A stretch of 62,731 bases of DNA, filler included, from Candidatus Rokuibacteriota bacterium (GTDB taxonomy: Bacteria; JAUVQV01; DATDCY01): assembly GCA_031406795.1 (NCBI GenBank). It is 4 parts of 4 records of this genome, joined end to end, with 100 filler letters (N's around TTAATTAATTAA, not from the genome) between each part and the next. Parts side by side here need not be neighbours in the genome. Positions count along the whole stretch, not along the records: positions 12,034 to 24,233 come from JANOHV010000092.1; 3 more parts are not named here. One strand, 5' to 3'. The first letter of the stretch is position 1; every line of letters starts with the position of its first letter. Both the position numbers and the translations under genes were made by a program. A model generated the notes under the pieces. The model was given only the letters and a program-made list of their open reading frames with translations, ran no database searches and had not been told where the DNA came from. This document shows positions 11,934-56,124 of the stretch, piece by piece.

Positions 11934-12033
11934 NNNNNNNNNNNNNNNNNNNNNNNNNNNNNNNNNNNNNNNNNNNNTTAATTAATTAANNNNNNNNNNN
12001 NNNNNNNNNNNNNNNNNNNNNNNNNNNNNNNNN
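11934..12033. other. Artificial contig linker
   Basis: N run with central TTAATTAATTAA (stops in six frames). Confidence 0.98.
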
Positions 12034-13521: not shown

Positions 13522-15048
13522 CTACGCCTCGGGGTCCGCGATGGTCCCCGCCTCGTGCTCCTCGAAAACCTCCTGTATCTGATCGATGCCGAATTCCACC
13601 GACATCGCCAGGTAAACGTGGATCGCCTGCCGGTAGCGCACGGCCTCCGGATCGCGCTTCAGGACTTCCAGGCTCGCGCGCCGCAATCCTTTGAGGGAGG
13701 CGACCAGTTCCTCGACGCGATACCCCTGCCGGTAACGGTGTTCCGCCAGCTCGCGGCAGTAGGCCATGAAACTCCCCTTGGTGCCCGCACGCACCGCCTC
13801 CATCAGGCTGCGGATGAGCAGGCCCGCCTGATACTCGCGTTCCTCGGCCCCCAGCTCGCGGAAGCGGGCCAGGGCGGGGTCCGCCCCCGGCCCCTCGAAA
13901 CAGCGGCGGAATTCTGCGGCGATCTCCTCCGCGTGGCGGCGAAAGAGTCGGAAGACGACGTAATTGGGGCGGATCTGATGATGCTCGAGCGCCTCGGCGT
14001 TGCGGCGCTTCCACTCCACCGGGTCGGAGCGCTTGTTCTCGATCATGTAGGGAACGCGGCTCAGGAGCCCGAGTCGCGGGTGCGGCTCCCACTCGAGAAT
14101 GCGCCGGGTGCGGCTCGCGTCCACCCACAGAAAGGTGTCGATATACCGCGCCATCCAGGGGCGCTCGAAGGGCCGCTCCCCCCGCATCCTGCCAACGAGG
14201 TCGTTGAGCGCCATCCCGGGACCGGCCAGCACGGCCGGGATCAGGATCGGCGTGCGGGGGCGTCCCGCGGCGTAAGTCGTCGCGGCCGTGAACAGCTCCC
14301 GGTGCGAGACGGCCCCGTCGGTGCTTGCGATCAGCGTGAGGGAGCGCTCGAGCACGTCCATCCGTTCAAGGACCCGCAGGACGAAGGACACCGCGTCGCG
14401 CACGTGCAGGTACGGGGTCGAGGTTTCCCCGCGCCCGCCGAGACACCGGGCGTTCCAGGCGTTGGAGAGCCAGGTCTCGAGAAAGAAGTAGAGCGGCGGG
14501 AACTCGCACCAGTCGGAGAAGAGCGCCCCGAAACGCACCGAGACCGTCGGGAAGTCGCGGGAGCGCTCAAAGACCAGCTCCTCCCCGACCCGCTTCGTCC
14601 GGGCGTAGACGTGGTCCCCGTCCGCCGGTGCGTCCTCGTCGAGCGGCGTGCGGTCGCGGCGCACGCGGGCCGCGCCGGCCGAGCTCGCGAAGATGAACCG
14701 CCGCAGGCCGAGGCTCCGGCAGGCGTCCAGCACGTGCCCGAGCCCGTCGACATTCGTGCGCTGGTACTCGGGATCCTCCTCGCCGGTGAAGTCGTAGTAG
14801 GCGGCGAGGTGGATGAACGCGTCGACGCGCCCCCCGGCGCGGATCTCGGCGAAGGTCTCCTCCACCGCGGCGGCGTCGCCGAGGTCGATCTGATGCCAGC
14901 TCATGTTCTCGTGATCGGGGACGTACGCCTCGGCACGGGGCCGTCGGTCGATCCCGACCACCCGCGCCCGGCCGAGAAGAGCCCCGACGAGCCGGCGGCC
15001 GAGAAAGCCGGACCCTCCGGTGACGATGACCCTCGGCAGTGCGCTCAT
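13522..15048 (-). CDS. Extended SDR (NAD-dependent epimerase) fused to a C-terminal helical domain
   Basis: TGGSGFLG, HLAA, YARTK (YxxxK); about 140-aa C-terminal extension. Confidence 0.85.
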   Translation of the reverse strand: MSALPRVIVTGGSGFLGRRLVGALLGRARVVGIDRRPRAEAYVPDHENMSWHQIDLGDAAAVEETFAEIRAGGRVDAFIHLAAYYDFTGEEDPEYQRTNVDGLGHVLDACRSLGLRRFIFASSAGAARVRRDRTPLDEDAPADGDHVYARTKRVGEELVFERSRDFPTVSVRFGALFSDWCEFPPLYFFLETWLSNAWNARCLGGRGETSTPYLHVRDAVSFVLRVLERMDVLERSLTLIASTDGAVSHRELFTAATTYAAGRPRTPILIPAVLAGPGMALNDLVGRMRGERPFERPWMARYIDTFLWVDASRTRRILEWEPHPRLGLLSRVPYMIENKRSDPVEWKRRNAEALEHHQIRPNYVVFRLFRRHAEEIAAEFRRCFEGPGADPALARFRELGAEEREYQAGLLIRSLMEAVRAGTKGSFMAYCRELAEHRYRQGYRVEELVASLKGLRRASLEVLKRDPEAVRYRQAIHVYLAMSVEFGIDQIQEVFEEHEAGTIADPEA

Positions 15049-15064
15049 CGGTGTTCCTTTCCTT

Positions 15065-15120
15065 CCTCGGCGGGGCGTTAAGCCGGGGAGTTTTTCAGCA
15101 ACGCCTTATAAGGGTTGGGC
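15065..15120 (-). mobile_element. Degenerate attC site of the glycosylase cassette
   Basis: GCCCAAC-CCTTATAAGGC-GTTGCTGA...GCTTAAC-GCCCC-GCCGAGG; R' has lost GTT. Confidence 0.55.
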
Positions 15121-15551
15121 AGTTTCCCCTTTTCCCACTCGGCTTGTGCACCCCGCTGTACCCGAAACAACGGATGCGGTTGTGGTCGTTTCACTGTTTC
15201 AAGATTCGCCCGCCATTGCGGATTGCGCACTCTCAGTTTCTCCATCAAATGACTCCATTCAAACTGAAGCTGGCCACGCGTCACATCGGACTGGCCTGAA
15301 GCCCGAGATCGACTGATCTTTCGACTATCAAAATGATAGCCGCGAGTCACCGCCTCAATGTGTACGATTCGCAGATATTCCGCAATGGCGCCGAGCGGTG
15401 AAGGTTGCTTCTGAAACCGAACGAGCTGGGAATGGTTGGCATACCCTCTCGTCTTTCCACTGAGCACTGCCTGAGCAAGAAGTCCTTCTCGCCACAGGGC
15501 AACCAGACCGGGCGGGTCAAGGTACTTCGGATGCAGACTCCAAATGCGCAT
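15078..15551 (-). CDS. Pyrimidine-dimer DNA glycosylase / endonuclease V family (cassette gene)
   Basis: MRIWSLHPKYLD..GLVALWREGLLAQAVL.G.TRGY.NH.QL.RF signature; lower GC than flanks. Confidence 0.85.
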   Translation of the reverse strand: MRIWSLHPKYLDPPGLVALWREGLLAQAVLSGKTRGYANHSQLVRFQKQPSPLGAIAEYLRIVHIEAVTRGYHFDSRKISRSRASGQSDVTRGQLQFEWSHLMEKLRVRNPQWRANLETVKRPQPHPLFRVQRGAQAEWEKGKLPNPYKALLKNSPA

Positions 15552-15573
15552 GGTTGTCGTTTACTCTTCTCGA

Positions 15574-15675
15574 GCACAACGTCGCAATGAATTGTGGGTG
15601 CGCCTTTACACCCGGATTGACAGAGTCCTTGTCCCGATAGCAGCCGTCGGCTCCATTGCCTTATAAGTGTTCGCC
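15574..15675 (-). mobile_element. attC site of the TA cassette
   Basis: R'' GGCGAAC, L'' AATGGAGC+CGAC, L' ATTCATT, R' GTTGTGC; starts 4 nt after the toxin stop. Confidence 0.75.
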
Positions 15676-15679
15676 GGTG

Positions 15680-15961
15680 CTATTTGCTTTTCAAATGTGT
15701 TTTCAAATCTCTGTAGTAATTTTGGTGCGGTCCGATCATTATCAACTCGAGGCTATCACTGCTGAAACGGTACGCAAGAAGATACAATTGGTTCATCAAA
15801 TTAAACTTATGGACAAAAATACCTCTCAGGTCGCCTTTCTTTTCAGTTCCGATAGAAGGATTTTGAATGATCTGATTAATTTCGCTATCTAGTTCTAGTT
15901 TTTCTGCTTTAGTAAGTTTTTGTACTCTTTTTTCAAATGACCTTGATTGATAGATTTTCAT
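15680..15961 (-). CDS. RelE/ParE-like type II toxin
   Basis: 93 aa, basic; IG.EKKGDL.G.FVHKF...LLAY...IGPHQNYYRDLK; AT-rich. Confidence 0.85.
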   Translation of the reverse strand: MKIYQSRSFEKRVQKLTKAEKLELDSEINQIIQNPSIGTEKKGDLRGIFVHKFNLMNQLYLLAYRFSSDSLELIMIGPHQNYYRDLKTHLKSK

Positions 15962-15967
15962 CAGGAA

Positions 15968-16195
15968 TCATCCGAATTGATATTCTGCCTTTTCGTTCTG
16001 ATCCAATTCTTCCAAACCGACCAAGATTTCTCTTATCAGATGGTAGGTTAAATCTGAGTTTTCTTCGGCGCACTTACCGATTGCTGCCCAGTGCTCAATT
16101 TGACCAGTCACCGAACGATGCTCAATCTTGCTGAATTTCCGTGCTTCATTTACCAACAGTTCAGATATTCTCACCGCGGTTGCCATTTTGCCCAC
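15968..16195 (-). CDS. ParD-like antitoxin
   Basis: AVRIS..LV..A......RS..GQIEHWA.IGK.AEEN.DL motif; directly upstream of the toxin. Confidence 0.85.
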   Translation of the reverse strand: MGKMATAVRISELLVNEARKFSKIEHRSVTGQIEHWAAIGKCAEENSDLTYHLIREILVGLEELDQNEKAEYQFG

Positions 16196-16231
16196 CTACT
16201 CTCCCTTTAAGATTTATGCCGTGCGCATAGC

Positions 16232-16257
16232 ATGCAACATTACATTGCATATTGCAA
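16232..16257. promoter_or_regulatory. Probable TA operator/promoter palindromes
   Basis: Overlapping ATGCAA-N7-TTGCAT and TTGCA-TAT-TGCAA about 40 bp upstream of the antitoxin. Confidence 0.55.
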
Positions 16258-16282
16258 CCTATCGTTTCCTTTTGTTCTTTCT

Positions 16283-16342
16283 GGCGAGTAGCGTTTAGCC
16301 GCGGGCGTGACCGTCATCTACAACGCCTTATAAGGGTCAGGT
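16283..16342 (-). mobile_element. Short attC site of the quinone-reductase cassette
   Basis: ACCTGAC-CCTTATAAGGC-GTTGTAGA-TGAC...GCTAAAC-GCTAC-TCGCC; arms nearly identical to the attC at 24453. Confidence 0.7.
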
Positions 16343-16938
16343 GATACTTTGGAATATCGCTCTGAAATTATGCACGAGATTTCGGCAAGCCAGGTTTTCC
16401 GTTCAGTCTCGGTGCTGGTCACGACAACACCAAAGGTTCTCCGATAGAAATCACTCACCCCGCAGAGATCGAATATGCAGTTCTTCCAGATGAGTTCCAA
16501 GGGGTCTCCAAATACGGACTGCTCTCTTTCTGCATTGGTGTTTGATGTATTGAAAACAGTGGCCGACCGAGCATTCAGGAGACCTCTTGGGACGCCTTCT
16601 CCCTTGTCCCCTTCAATGAACTCGTATGCAACCCCAGGTCGAATTACTCGATCAACCCATCCCTTTAAAATGGCTGGGGGTTGCCCCCACCAATTTGGGT
16701 GAATGATGACAATCCCTGAGGCGGTCGATATTTCGGAACAGTGCTTTTCAATATCAGGGGACAATGTGACATCCTTGGGAAGCTCGCCGACCGGCAAAAC
16801 ACAGTCGAACCGCTCTGCGTACAAGTCATGGAAATTGACCTTGTGGCCGTTTGCTTGGAGGACAGCAACGCAAGTAGATGCAATGGCGTGGTTGAAACTG
16901 CCGTTATCGGGGTGTGCTAGAACTACTGAGACCGCCAT
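16318..16938 (-). CDS. Flavodoxin-fold NAD(P)H-dependent oxidoreductase (cassette gene)
   Basis: LAHP...SFNHA, HDLY, HPNWWGQPPAILKGWVDRV; start trimmed to MAVSVV. Confidence 0.85.
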   Translation of the reverse strand: MAVSVVLAHPDNGSFNHAIASTCVAVLQANGHKVNFHDLYAERFDCVLPVGELPKDVTLSPDIEKHCSEISTASGIVIIHPNWWGQPPAILKGWVDRVIRPGVAYEFIEGDKGEGVPRGLLNARSATVFNTSNTNAEREQSVFGDPLELIWKNCIFDLCGVSDFYRRTFGVVVTSTETERKTWLAEISCIISERYSKVSPDPYKAL

Positions 16939-16952
16939 CTCTTCGGCATGCT

Positions 16953-19900
16953 TCACGCCGCCTTCCCCATGCCGAACAGCCTCTTGAACCGCCGCTGCAG
17001 CCCGTCGAAGTAGGTGTAGAAGACCGGCGTCACATAGAGCGTGATGAACTGCGAGAACGCCAGCCCGCCGACGACCGCCATGCCGAGCGGGCGGCGACTC
17101 TCGGCGCCGGCGCCCAGCCCGAGGGCGATCGGCAGCGTGCCGAAGAGCGCGCACATCGTGGTCATCATGATCGGGCGAAAGCGGATGCGGCAGGCCTCGA
17201 GGATCGCCTCCAGCGGCGCTTTCCCCTCCTTGCGCTCGGCCTCGAGCGCGAAGTCGATCATCATGATGGCGTTCTTCTTGACGACGCCGATGAGCATGAT
17301 CAGCCCGACGTAGCTGTAGACCGAGAGCTCCTGCTTGAACACCAGCAGCGTCAGCAGCGCGCCGAAGCCGGCGAACGGCAGCCCGGAGAGGATCGTCAGC
17401 GGGTGCACGAAGCTCTCGTAGAGGATGCCGAGGACGAGGTAGATCACCAGGATCGCCAGCACCAGCAGCGCCAGCATGCCGGCCTGCGACGCCTTGAAAG
17501 CCTGCGCGGTCCCGGTGAAATTCCCGGTGACGGTCGGGGGCAGCACGCCCCGGGCCGCGCCCTCGACCTGCTTGACGGCGTCCCCGAGCGCGACCCCGGG
17601 CTTCGCGTTGAAGGCCAGCGTGACGGCGGGCAGCTGCCCGGCGTGGTTGACGGTGAGCGGCCCGAGGCTCGCCCGCATCGTCGCCAGCGTCGAGAGCGGC
17701 ACCAGCTCGCCCTTCGCGGTGCGGATCGAGAGCAGGTCGAGCGCGGCGGGGTCGCGCTGGTATTCCGGCTGCAGCTGGAGGATCACCTGGTACTGGTTCG
17801 TCGGCGTGTAGATCGTCGAGACCTGCCGCGCGCCGTAAGCGTAGTAGAGGGAGTTCTGGATCTGCTCGACGCTGACGCCGAGGGCCGCCGCGCGGTCGCG
17901 GTCGATGTCGATGTTGACCTCGGGGTTCTTCAGCAGCAGATCGCTCGTCACGTCCTGCAGGCCCGGCAGCTCACGCAGCTTCGCCTCGAGCAGCGGCGCG
18001 ACCTGGTAGAGCTCGTCCAGGTCCTGCCCCTGCAGCGTGTACTGGTAGAGGCTCTTGCTCGAGGCGCCGGGAAGCCGGATCGTCGGGGGCACCTGCGGGA
18101 AGGCGCGGATGCCCGGGACCTGCGCCAGCTTCCCCCGCAGCCCCTCGACGACCTGGGATCCGCTCAGCGTGCGCTCCGAGCGGTCCTTGAGCTTGATGAA
18201 CATGCGCCCCTGGTTCGCGGTGCCGCCGCCACCGCCGCCGGCCGAGGACATGAACGACTCGATGTTGGGGTCCTTCGCGACGATCGCCATCAGCGCCTTC
18301 TGGTGCGGCACCATCGCCTCGAACGAGGTGCCTTCGGCGGTCTCCGTGATGATCGAAAGCCGGCCGGTGTCCTCGATCGGGAAGAGGCCCTTCGGGACGA
18401 GCTTGAAGAGCCAGACCGTCCCGAGCGTGATCGCGATCGCGATCGCCAGCGCCGTCCTGCGGTGGCGCACGAACCAGCCCAGGCTGCGCACGTAAATCCC
18501 GAGGAAGAATTCGTAGCCGCGCTCCGTGAACGCGAAGAACGCGCCGTGCCTGACGTCGTGCGAGGATTTGATGAACCGGCTGCACATCATCGGCGTCAAT
18601 GTCAGCGAGACCACGCCGGAGATCAGGATCGCCGAGACGATGGTGATCGAGAACTCGCGGAAGAGCCGGCCGATGACCCCGGGCATGAAGATCAGCGGCA
18701 GGAAGACCGCGGCCAGCGAGATCGTCATCGAGAGGATCGTGAAGCCGATCTCGGCGGCGCCGTCGAGCGCGGCCTGCATCGGCTTCTTGCCCATCTCGAC
18801 GTGGCGCACGATGTTCTCGAGCATCACGATCGCGTCGTCGACGACGAAGCCGAGCGAGAGCGTCAGGGCCATCAGCGAGAGGTTGTCGATGTTGTAGCCG
18901 AAGGCCTTCATGACCGCGAAGGTGCCCACGACGCTCATCGGCAGCGCGAGGCTGGGGATCACCGTGGCCGAGACGTTGCGCAGGAAGAAGAAGATCACCA
19001 GCACGACGAGCCCGAAGGTCAGCAGCAGGGTCCATTGGACGTCGTTCACCGACTCCTTGATCGATTCGGAGCGGTCGTAGAGCACCTCGACGCTCACGGA
19101 GGCCGGCAGCTGTATGCGCAGCGCGTCCAGGGTCTCGCGGACCGCCTTGGCCACGGCCACGGTGTTCGTGCCCGGCTGGCGCTGGATCGCCAGGATGACG
19201 CCCCGGCTCTCGGCGCCCCCCGTCGTGAACCAGGCGGCGGTCTTGTCGTTCTGGACGCTGTCGAGCACCTCGCCGACGTCCTCGAGCCGCACCGGCGCGC
19301 CGCCGCGGTACGCGACGATCAGCGAGCGGAACGCGCCGGCGTCCTCGAGCTGCCCGGAGGCGCGCAGCGTCAGCGCCTTCTCCGCCCCCCAGAGCGTCCC
19401 GGCCGGGATGTTCACGTTTCCCTGGCCGATCGCGTTCGAGACCTCGTCGATGCCGATCTGCTTCGCCGCCAGCCGGCGCGGATCGAGCTGGACCCGCACC
19501 GCGTACTTCTGCGACCCGAAGACCTGCACCTGGGCGACCCCCTGGACCATCGAGATTCGCTGGGCCATCAGGTTCTCCCCGTACTCGCTGAGCGTGGAGA
19601 GCTGCAGGGTCTTCGAGGTCAGCGCCAGGAACAGAATCGGGTCGTCCGCCGGATTCACCTTCTGGTACGACGGCGGCGTGATGTCCTTGGGCAGGCTGCG
19701 CATCGTCTGCGCGATGGCCGCCTGCACGTCCTGGGCCGCGGCGTCGTTGTCGCGGTCGAGGTTGAAGGTCAGCTCGATCGAGGTCGAGCCCTGACTCGAG
19801 GAGGAAGTCATCGAGTCGATGCCGGCGATGGTGGAGAACTGCTTCTCCAGCGGCGTGGCGACCGCCGAGGCCATCGTCTGCGGGTCGGCGCCGGAGAGCG

Positions 19901-20048
19901 AAGCGCGGACCTGGACGGTCGGGTAGTCGACGTTGGGCAAATCGCTCACCGGCAGGCTGCGGTAGCCCATGACCCCGAACATCACGACCGCCGCCATCAG
20001 CAGCGTGGTCGCGACGGGCCGGCGGATGAAGGTGCCGGCGACGTTCAC
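16953..20048 (-). CDS. RND efflux permease (MdtB/C-like, HAE1)
   Basis: FIRRPVAT, VATPLE, GFVVDDAIV, KKNAIMMIDF, RFRPIMMTT. Confidence 0.94.
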   Translation of the reverse strand: MNVAGTFIRRPVATTLLMAAVVMFGVMGYRSLPVSDLPNVDYPTVQVRASLSGADPQTMASAVATPLEKQFSTIAGIDSMTSSSSQGSTSIELTFNLDRDNDAAAQDVQAAIAQTMRSLPKDITPPSYQKVNPADDPILFLALTSKTLQLSTLSEYGENLMAQRISMVQGVAQVQVFGSQKYAVRVQLDPRRLAAKQIGIDEVSNAIGQGNVNIPAGTLWGAEKALTLRASGQLEDAGAFRSLIVAYRGGAPVRLEDVGEVLDSVQNDKTAAWFTTGGAESRGVILAIQRQPGTNTVAVAKAVRETLDALRIQLPASVSVEVLYDRSESIKESVNDVQWTLLLTFGLVVLVIFFFLRNVSATVIPSLALPMSVVGTFAVMKAFGYNIDNLSLMALTLSLGFVVDDAIVMLENIVRHVEMGKKPMQAALDGAAEIGFTILSMTISLAAVFLPLIFMPGVIGRLFREFSITIVSAILISGVVSLTLTPMMCSRFIKSSHDVRHGAFFAFTERGYEFFLGIYVRSLGWFVRHRRTALAIAIAITLGTVWLFKLVPKGLFPIEDTGRLSIITETAEGTSFEAMVPHQKALMAIVAKDPNIESFMSSAGGGGGGTANQGRMFIKLKDRSERTLSGSQVVEGLRGKLAQVPGIRAFPQVPPTIRLPGASSKSLYQYTLQGQDLDELYQVAPLLEAKLRELPGLQDVTSDLLLKNPEVNIDIDRDRAAALGVSVEQIQNSLYYAYGARQVSTIYTPTNQYQVILQLQPEYQRDPAALDLLSIRTAKGELVPLSTLATMRASLGPLTVNHAGQLPAVTLAFNAKPGVALGDAVKQVEGAARGVLPPTVTGNFTGTAQAFKASQAGMLALLVLAILVIYLVLGILYESFVHPLTILSGLPFAGFGALLTLLVFKQELSVYSYVGLIMLIGVVKKNAIMMIDFALEAERKEGKAPLEAILEACRIRFRPIMMTTMCALFGTLPIALGLGAGAESRRPLGMAVVGGLAFSQFITLYVTPVFYTYFDGLQRRFKRLFGMGKAA

Positions 20049-24233: not shown

Positions 24234-24333
24234 NNNNNNNNNNNNNNNNNNNNNNNNNNNNNNNNNNNNNNNNNNNNTTAATTAATTAANNNNNNNNNNN
24301 NNNNNNNNNNNNNNNNNNNNNNNNNNNNNNNNN
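24234..24333. other. Artificial contig linker
   Basis: N run with TTAATTAATTAA. Confidence 0.98.
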
Positions 24334-24364
24334 ATACCCGCTCTGGATGCACCAGAGCACGCAT
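24334..24364 (-). CDS. Start of second integron cassette ORF (truncated)
   Basis: AAGGAG RBS, then ATG 24364 reading MRALVHPERV; downstream of attC R'. Confidence 0.45.
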
Positions 24365-24452
24365 GCTCTCCTTGGATCGCAGTGACGGAACACTGGGTTC
24401 AATCGGCCCTCCTGCACCGTTGAACTGTCTTGAGTAAGCGACCTCGTGTCGC

Positions 24453-24583
24453 AACCAACGTAGCGTTTAGCCGCAGGCGCGCTTGCCTGCCCGCCCTTAC
24501 ACATTGCTTCTTCACTCACCCTGGATTCAAAGGGCAGAAATGCAAGCGTGACTGTCGGCTACAACGCCTTGATTCCCTATTCC
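24453..24583 (-). mobile_element. attC site of the first integron cassette
   Basis: L'' GTT[G]TAGC pairs with L' GCTAAAC leaving one extrahelical base; inner arms CGCTTGC/GCAAGCG; R' GTTGGTT; R'' degenerate. Confidence 0.8.
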
Positions 24584-56024: not shown

Positions 56025-56124
56025 NNNNNNNNNNNNNNNNNNNNNNNNNNNNNNNNNNNNNNNNNNNNTTAATTAATTAANNNNNNNNNNNNNNNNNNNN
56101 NNNNNNNNNNNNNNNNNNNNNNNN
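56025..56124. other. Artificial contig linker
   Basis: N run with TTAATTAATTAA. Confidence 0.98.

Follow-up and report, generated by a model that had tools for sequence, protein, structure and literature searches.

Canonical attC sites (59-base elements such as attC aadA7 and the VCR sites) have ends of the form NNNNAAC and GTTNNNN, an imperfect L''/L' repeat, a spacer of 5 nucleotides (nt) between L' and R', and unpaired bases six pairs apart on the R''-L'' arm. They form the 3' ends of promoterless cassettes, and their R'' box is complementary to the first bases of the cassette. As far as the available text of PMC5027507 goes, the attC spacer is described as 'usually five to six bases' per arm. 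Here we analyzed a window (a whole stretch of 62,731 nt, filler included) from the genome of a Candidatus Rokuibacteriota bacterium (GenBank assembly GCA_031406795.1), in which three consecutive attC sites, designated A, B and C, belong to a family with this organization. In contrast to canonical sites, however, their R''-L'' spacer is 11 nt long (12 nt once elsewhere in the genome), the extra bases being a fixed palindrome-forming string, and throughout their family the unpaired L'' base of the bottom strand is C instead of G.

Sedentary chromosomal integrons with VCR-type attC families share with this genome near-identical attC bodies over dozens of cassettes and low-GC cassettes in a high-GC host, but this genome holds two length classes of one family (seven canonical and seven variant sites), whereas its congeners hold one. 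In the attC sites oxa2 and VCR2, which have a third extrahelical base, natural extra unpaired bases also lie on the R''-L'' arm and affect strand choice or efficiency, according to the part of PMC5027507 available; those are single bases within the L stem, whereas here six bases lie in the central bubble. No description of long one-sided attC spacers, or of the decamer CTTATAAGGC found here, turned up in the literature searched, whose supplementary site lists may contain long-spacer sites.

A cluster of attC sites without an integron integrase is termed a CALIN in IntegronFinder terminology, and the three-cassette array of the window, located between an AcrB-type pump gene and an epimerase gene, is a CALIN: three attC sites lie within 1.3 kb and the contig has no integrase. 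Like other CALINs, it is a run of attC-bearing cassettes, here three, on a contig without intI, and integrases elsewhere in the genome could act on it in trans. It differs from them in that its position is common to the genus but its content is not, two of its three sites lack the R' core, and the contig is only 12.2 kb long, so that an intI may lie further away.

Three attC sites with an 11-nt R''-L'' spacer

The three sites are listed below with their scores under R1, a covariance model built from 32 canonical sites of the congener G001 (G, C and L are our handles for related genomes, contigs and loci).

16281..16342, minus strand: attC site A, ending the flavodoxin-like cassette (from sequence; R1 34.6 bits)
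15574..15675, minus strand: attC site B, ending the ParD/ParE cassette (from sequence and folding; R1 9.3 bits)
15065..15120, minus strand: attC site C, ending the glycosylase cassette (from sequence, homology to G001 and folding; R1 1.9 bits)

An earlier note on this DNA had reported three strings on the minus strand, at 16342, 15675 and 15120, and all were found at those positions. Site A consists of R'' ACCTGAC (16342-16336), the spacer CCTTATAAGGC (16335-16325) and GTTGTAGA (16324-16317); its L'' is GTT-G-TAG, its center is deleted, and L' GCTAAAC is followed by GCTAC and by TCGCCAG at the R' position, the GT of GTT being gone. Site B has R'' GGCGAAC (15675-15669), the spacer ACTTATAAGGC (15668-15658) and AATGGAGC (15657-15650), then L'' AATGGAG, L' TTCATT, GCGAC and an intact R' GTTGTGC. 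In site C, R'' GCCCAAC (15120-15114) precedes the spacer CCTTATAAGGC (15113-15103) and GTTGCTGA (15102-15095), and a short L''/L' stem, GTTGCTG...GGCTTAAC, is followed by GCCCC and by GCCGAGG without GTT. The earlier note had seen an L' box, about 5 nt and an R' position after each string; the 5-nt arm is indeed present in all three sites (GCTAC, GCGAC and GCCCC), but the GTT core is intact in site B only. With respect to the core pattern RYYYAAC/GTTRRRY, site B conforms and alone keeps both cores, site A has GAC for AAC and an R' without GT, and site C has GCCCAAC and no GTT.

As the note had also proposed, six extra bases make the R''-L'' spacer 11 nt instead of 5 nt, and this holds for all three sites, whose R''-L'' arm lies outside the usual 5-6 nt:

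16329..16334, minus strand: six extra bases CTTATA of site A, between spacer base 1 and AGGC, as compared to canonical AAC-CAGGC-GTTGTAG (76 congener sites and three sites beside intI on contig C235)
15662..15667, minus strand: six extra bases CTTATA of site B (from sequence; a plain-spacer body is found in L038)
15107..15112, minus strand: six extra bases CTTATA of site C (the orthologous cassette of G001 is without the insert; copies in L038 and L046 have it)

The window has three exact copies of the decamer CTTATAAGGC; with up to one mismatch on both strands there are five matches, versus 0.37 expected, and none of 100 shuffles reached five. Of the six exact copies in the whole 4.1-Mb genome, three lie here and three on contig C157, all on one strand. 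We have little doubt that the three window sites are attC sites carrying a six-base insert.

To place R'', we required that it match the first bases of its own cassette, supplied by the last six bases of the core before it, and compared the 11-nt reading with a 5-nt-spacer reading. Among 12 cases with a full core, the AAC heptamer is complementary at 7/7 positions in eight (L023, two cassettes of L038, L046, L048, L052, L067 against attI, and C157:13253) and at 6/7 in L042 and in window site C, where GCCCAAC faces the preceding GTTGTGC. In site B, GGCGAAC matches 5/5 of the bases (TCGCC) that survive after site A; this match and that of site C had been pointed out before, and both hold. In the 5-nt reading, R'' would be CCCTTAT or CACTTAT, next to AAGGC; this candidate was rejected, with complementarity of at most 3/7 where it was scored (L067, the second L038 cassette and site C were left unscored). 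Judged by complementarity, the R'' box is the AAC heptamer upstream of the insert, in agreement with the earlier assignment of the distal box.

Two loose regular-expression scans for related sites gave mostly chance matches and were replaced by nhmmer with the window sites as queries, which recovered the same element on other contigs. A genome-wide structure scan (AAC-spacer-stem-spacer-GTT) was too noisy, with 29-57 hits per spacer length versus 23-37 in reversed sequence. In its canonical form, the family has R'' NNNNAAC, spacer CAGGC and L'' GTT-G-TAGCCGAC on the left, and L' GCGGCTA-AAC, spacer GCTAC and R' GTTNNNN on the right; GTT-G-TAGCCG-A pairs with CGGCTA-AAC in the consensus, and this L stem is kept in the folds of sites A and B, site C having a short stem of seven pairs with a TT bulge. 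On C235, the attI core GTTAGCC lies beside intI, and the R'' boxes of the next three attC sites (GGCTAAC, AGCTAAC and GCCTAAC, followed by CAGGC-GTTGTAGCCGAC) each complement the core before at 7/7 positions, and the spacer is 5 nt, as in a textbook array. The right ends of these sites are GC(T/A)AC followed by GTTAGCT, GTTAGGC or GTGTGCG.

The unpaired L'' base, at position 16, is a top-strand G, and hence a bottom-strand C, across the family, including the loci L123 and L124 and, in the window, site A (16321), site C (15099) and the first attC of the C255 integron (24561). This G is invariant in 32/32 aligned G001 sites, and six pairs further along the other unpaired base is T on the bottom strand, as usual. 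Bouvier 2009 describes a bottom-strand G at that L'' position as absolutely conserved (PMC2727003, in the part available).

With the variant sites compared against this family, near-identical bodies were found in both forms: C157:16374 pairs with canonical C235:45171, and C157:10369 with C235:43901. The C157 variants differ from their canonical twins only by AAC-(C/A)CTTATAAGGC-GTTGTAG, that is, by CTTATA added after spacer base 1. Three of the four variant sites on C157 keep a full right half with the GTT core, and C157:13253 carries seven extra bases (CCTTATAGAGGC), giving a 12-nt spacer. A search of the genome with R1 returned 20 sites at E values up to 1, with left ends that were canonical in seven, variant in five and of another kind in four; three had no left half and one was not examined. 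Window sites B and C fell below this threshold and raise the variants to seven, one of them with 12 nt, alongside the seven canonical sites.

The canonical twins scored 105.9 and 115.4 bits under R1 and their variant counterparts 94.2 and 93.8, all four C157 variants lying at 91-94 bits. From the hit lengths, three of these four seem to have been matched over the uninserted span, with the insert read as a poor R'' and not as an insertion. The low scores of sites A, B and C are due mainly to different or truncated bodies; in the R1 alignment of site A, 65 model positions are skipped (GCUAC--UCGCC). None of the three sites was matched by Rfam, whose single hit in the window is a tRNA. The note had suspected that standard covariance models may miss such sites, and a generic, less informative model might do so.

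Distribution of the insert and its polymorphism

We searched 40 relatives, including three congeners, one more genome of the order and one of the class, the lineage being thinly sampled. G001 contains 61 copies of the L'' anchor GGCGTTGTAGCNGAC, and G003 and the genome analyzed here have 13 copies each. In the loci cut from G001 and G003, AAC lies exactly 5 nt before L'' in 76/92 anchor hits and at 11-12 nt in 0/92, and most R'' boxes are 7/7 complementary to the preceding core. All 32 aligned G001 sites have a 5-nt spacer, and AAC, AGGC, GTTGTAGC, GAC, GCTAAAC and CTACGTT are invariant among them. The motif AACNCTTATAAGGCNNTG was absent from all 40 relatives, including the three congeners. 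A scan of five genomes for 10- to 12-nt spacers (AAC N6-9 GGCGTTGTAGC) found only the CTTATA type, its one 12-nt derivative and an unclear case at C157:8772 (AAC-CGCCCAAGGC).

Public sequences were searched with the exact pattern AACNCTTATAAGGCGTTG, so the uniformity of the sites found is by construction and the share of variants within the family is not given by this search. There were 67 matches in 65 public loci (contigs from metagenomes and metagenome-assembled genomes). In 24 of them, an L'' within three mismatches of GTTGTAGCCGAC follows, and 20 clear family sites were left after one likely chance match and three identical contigs without a right half had been dropped. The remaining 43 matches look like chance, as expected for 17 fixed bases. 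A complete right half with the GTT core is present in 10/20 of the clear sites, and intact sites related to site A were found in L048 and L062. The variant occurs on at least 15 different cassettes in many samples, and the recurrence across unrelated cassettes that the earlier note had described thus extends across contigs and samples.

The note had suggested looking for the motif near intI, and L067 provides such a case. Here, an intI 78% identical to IntI of C235 faces the attI core G|TTCGGC, where the first cassette starts; this cassette ends in GCCGAAC-CCTTATAAGGC-GTTGTAG, a variant site whose R'' complements the attI core at 7/7 positions. A cassette of the variant type also adjoins an intI remnant in L038 (89% identity to IntI of C113). 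In this remnant (L038:1-400), the right half of an attC interrupts the gene at about residue 26, so that attI and the integrase start are lost. A link of the variant to one integrase type was considered and rejected: variants lie beside integrases resembling those of C235 and C113, which are 58% identical to each other, and the C235 array itself is canonical.

The glycosylase cassette of the window has homologues in L038 (92% nucleotide identity), L046 (89%), L092 (85%) and L079 (85%). In L038 it lies two cassettes further on, starting G|TTGGGC and ending GCCCAAC-CCTTATAAGGC. The spacer of this cassette is CCTTATAAGGC in the window, L038 and L046, CCATAAATGGC in L079, and CAGAA in G001 (85% identity; GCCCAAC-CAGAA-GTTGTAG). 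The 11-nt spacer CCATAAATGGC of L079 (L079:755-790) has palindrome positions 3 and 8 swapped together from T-A to A-T, a single case with a chance probability of approximately 7% by rough estimate. In the L079 cassette, an in-frame TAA ends the open reading frame (ORF) at the spacer. A flavodoxin-like cassette remnant in G001 has a CAGGC spacer, and L038 contains a site-B-like body with a plain spacer, GGCTAAC-CAGGC-AATGCAG...GATTGCTAC-GTTGGGC. Altogether, the insert is found on at least four attC body types, each also known without it.

The earlier note had taken the three sites to represent a distinct attC class. This part did not stand: because the same bodies and the same glycosylase cassette exist with a plain 5-nt spacer, the variant is, at the level of sequence, a length variant inside the ordinary attC family of the lineage and no separate family. 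Since the insert is common to several body types and polymorphic within one cassette lineage, it would have arisen or been lost repeatedly, or it may spread between attC copies by short-patch conversion. Three origins fit: conversion between attC copies, recurrent gain, and an old insert with repeated precise loss.

Folding of the variant sites and rival explanations

In the family consensus, spacer GGC pairs with GC(T), leaving two unpaired bases per arm (CA opposite AC). The insert sits exactly in this two-base bubble, on the R''-L'' arm, which also bears the extrahelical bases, and renders the bubble strongly asymmetric. The sites were modeled in the state of an excised cassette, R' being set to match R''. 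In all ten variant bottom strands modeled, the R box is predicted to persist (pair probability 0.94-0.99), as is the L stem. The note had further suggested that the palindrome could extrude as a mini-hairpin. In the folds, the insert appears as a one-sided loop or a stub of 2-3 bp, and its removal in silico gains 0.3-3.2 kcal/mol; a mini-hairpin is therefore seen in some predicted folds but is marginal at best, since the insert costs energy.

These folds suggest a mechanism in which the extra bases would loop out of the folded bottom strand, on the arm with the extrahelical bases. Because the integrase is reported, in the available text of PMC5027507, to make no contact with the spacer, the R and L boxes would still form and IntI could use the variant sites, probably at an altered rate. 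Three spacer bases are able to switch the hairpin between straight and kinked forms (PMC6393395, in the part available). On this modeling, recombination competence of the variant sites is slightly favored. The window array itself is probably frozen, with its cassettes fixed in place, because both cores survive in site B alone, A is missing its center and the GT of R', and C is without GTT; its retention may be aided by the ParDE pair. Taken as a whole, the explanation that we prefer, and consider reasonably probable, is that these are attC sites of the lineage with a tolerated CTTATA insert, which are still usable, and that the array in the window is frozen.

Several points weigh against this explanation. 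Two of the three window sites are without a GTT core, and in the array context the minimum-energy fold of the short site C is a local hairpin, AAC-CCTTATAAGG-C-GTT, that occupies R'' and L''; inactivation of a site by the insert would therefore be equally conceivable. According to the available part of PMC2727003, changes in the shape or orientation of the unpaired spacer lower recombination of VCR2/1 27-fold to approximately 470-fold, and a tripled arm may not be harmless. Complementarity of the AAC heptamer is poor in two cases, C157:16384 (4/7) and L036 (3/7). The 20 public sites come from an exact-pattern search, and the cassette that lies first beside attI in L067 could have acquired its insert after integration. 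Finally, the variant is present in none of the three congeners (0/3), and this integron lineage thus does not need it.

Some of these points also fit a rival explanation, in which the insert is a disabling lesion: the sites would be decaying, an enlarged self-pairing spacer would block folding and synapsis, and the cassettes would be fixed as a result. Loss of the R' core in sites A and C and of the center in A would be in line with decay, and the local hairpin is the minimum-energy fold not only for site C but also for the top strand of C157:16850. Spacer shape matters in the VCR mutants (PMC2727003, in the part available), and the variant is absent among the 76 well-ordered canonical sites of two congeners. 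However, ten public variants and three of the four on C157 keep the full right half and the GTT core, R'' is 7/7 complementary to the preceding core in eight cases that include a first cassette at attI, and the modeled energy cost is small. The presence of the insert on at least 15 different cassettes in many samples is hard to reconcile with dead sites, unless conversion spreads the insert. We regard a lesion as unlikely, although it deserves serious attention. It is doubtful that the insert is an active, sequence-specific module that spreads between attC copies by conversion or template switching and tunes recombination. Such a module might act as an added looped-out element on the arm bearing the extrahelical bases, or as a switch, in which the hairpin AAC-CCTTATAAGG-C-GTT would hide R'' and L'' until the DNA is fully single-stranded. 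If this were true, the module would be a natural regulator of cassette mobility, and the integron synapse would work with a bubble of approximately two by eight bases.

The insert might instead be kept for a reason other than recombination, as a palindromic protein site in double-stranded DNA, a -10-like TATAAG for the next cassette, or a source of extra TAA stops. The palindrome is identical on both strands, one further frame per strand gains a TAA, and L079 CCATAAATGGC keeps the palindrome through its paired swap. But the swap is one case of covariation with the chance expectation given above, no binding protein is indicated, and the ORFs of A and C read through the insert in a stop-free frame, while that of B ends earlier. 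A sigma-70-type scan found 0 promoter-like sites in 14900-17100, and with 0 terminator-like sites there as well, a promoter or terminator role was rejected. This explanation is improbable in our view. The six bases could also be what a mobile element that targets the 5' end of attC left behind, a footprint or a scar at its target site; both IS1111-attC elements and group IIC-attC introns insert near that end (PMC3001079, in the part available). Group II intron-like ends interrupt this attC family in the genome (C210 and C133) and in L036, L046 and L091, and a site-specific process is suggested by four body types having an identical string in an identical place. Yet no element was found in the spacer, the intron-like insertions lie approximately 25 nt further in, past CACGCT, and the canonical CAGGC has no TA or TTAA from which a duplication could be explained. 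In addition, the IS1111 family reportedly inserts without adding target bases (PMC11187229, in the part available), and intron loss is precise. A scar is very improbable.

Several attC sites of the family have other sequence in place of their left half (C210:2257-2376, C133:22436-22560, L036, L046 and L091 near 1850). Some of these carry sequence ending ...GGGTGACCGCCG..TCTACCCGGAT, like the 3' end of a group II intron; others are cut after CACGCTTC by another shared sequence. The interrupting sequences are probably attC-targeting introns.

The array in its genome and the meaning of the variant

The window consists of four contigs joined by N spacers: C253 (1-11933), C254 (12034-24233), C255 (24334-56024) and C258 (from 56125). 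The N runs, with a TTAATTAATTAA linker, are at 11934-12033, 24234-24333 and 56025-56124, and adjacency across these joints is not real. The array lies on C254 with the following genes:

16318..16938, minus strand: cassette 1 ORF, flavodoxin-like fold protein of the NAD(P)H dehydrogenase type (Pfam PF02525 Flavodoxin_2, 7.7e-29)
15680..16195, minus strand: cassette 2, ParD-like antitoxin (16195-15968; Pfam PF11903 ParD_like, 8.3e-18) and ParE-like toxin (15961-15680; PF15781 ParE-like_toxin, 2.9e-30)
15078..15551, minus strand: cassette 3 ORF, pyrimidine-dimer DNA glycosylase (Pfam PF03013 Pyr_excise, 1.2e-20)
16953..20048, minus strand: upstream chromosomal flank, AcrB/AcrD/AcrF-type RND pump gene (Pfam PF00873, 1059 bits)
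13522..15048, minus strand: downstream chromosomal flank, NAD-dependent epimerase/dehydratase gene (Pfam PF01370)

The likely start codon of the cassette 1 ORF is the ATG at 16938. The cassettes had been called unrelated and AT-rich, and they do have three distinct Pfam contents and a GC content of 0.42-0.56, versus approximately 0.70 in the flanks. They had also been said to precede their sites; the sites do close the cassettes, but in A and C the site extends back over the 3' end of the ORF (...PDPYKAL* and ...PNPYKALLKNSPA*, respectively), the ORF of B stopping before its site. A conserved peptide (D/N)PYKAL, as read in A and C, was rejected as a feature: it falls after a stop codon in B and in several public sites.

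The low-GC island extends from directly 3' of the pump gene stop codon to site C, whose right end is the border to conserved chromosomal DNA, with homology to G001 restarting just past GGCTTAACGCCC. The pump gene has 89-91% nucleotide identity in the three congeners, and the epimerase gene is conserved in G001 and G003. In G001, both genes are on one contig, 5.7 kb apart, with a different low-GC array between them (L091, G001:C4:36800-43200) that has at least six canonical attC sites; this contig, too, is without intI. The flanks in G002 and G003 stop at contig breaks or sit on separate contigs. From this comparison, the AcrB/epimerase gap, at 15049-16952 in the window, is an array position common to the genus, with content that differs per genome. 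Elsewhere in G001 (G001:C7:1-40000; L123 and L124), one array has at least 51 near-identical attC sites over approximately 40 kb, making it a sedentary chromosomal integron of large size, in a lineage for which few genomes have been sampled.

No integrase was found among the scanned ORFs of the 12.2-kb contig C254, which extends 3 kb and 7.9 kb past the array. The integron integrase gene of the window and the attC next to it lie on C255:

25104..26462, plus strand: integron integrase gene, on another contig (TIGR02249, 394.3 bits versus a cut-off of 265)
24453..24577, minus strand: first attC of the C255 integron, with the family body, a 5-nt AAGGC spacer and R'' GGGAATC without AAC (R1 90.9 bits)

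Because this gene is on a different contig, its closeness to the array in the window is no evidence of a connection. The genome has three intI genes (402.5, 394.3 and 374.5 bits with TIGR02249), with mutual identities of 57-65%. The attI core of the C255 integron is GTTAGAT (24945-24939), which would predict ATCTAAC as R'' of the first cassette. The left end of this cassette is instead of a third type, ...(G/T)ATC-AAG(G/A)C-GTT, with an R'' without AAC on an otherwise normal site; it was seen at window 24453-24577, at C157:13682-13807 and in L052 near 934. A cassette start, GCGACACGAGGTCGCTTAC, follows attC at three places, window 24334-24452 approximately (minus strand), C157 near 13090 and L067:1-30. 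C255 begins inside this cassette start, which suggests a repeat-induced assembly break there.

The unpaired central spacer is one of three structural features that set the efficiency and orientation of cassette recombination, and its role has so far been probed by engineered inversions and pairings of a few model sites. For integron specialists, the variant is a natural test series and no new type of system: a matched set of the same bodies and the same cassette with and without the six bases, on which the asymmetry tolerated by the IntI synapse could be tested. That attC subtypes repeatedly carry an identical insert is also relevant to the question of how a host keeps its attC sites similar. 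If the variant is inactive, it would mark a simple route to cassette fixation in chromosomes. If it is active, attC search models and the design rules for synthetic attC sites should admit long one-sided spacers.

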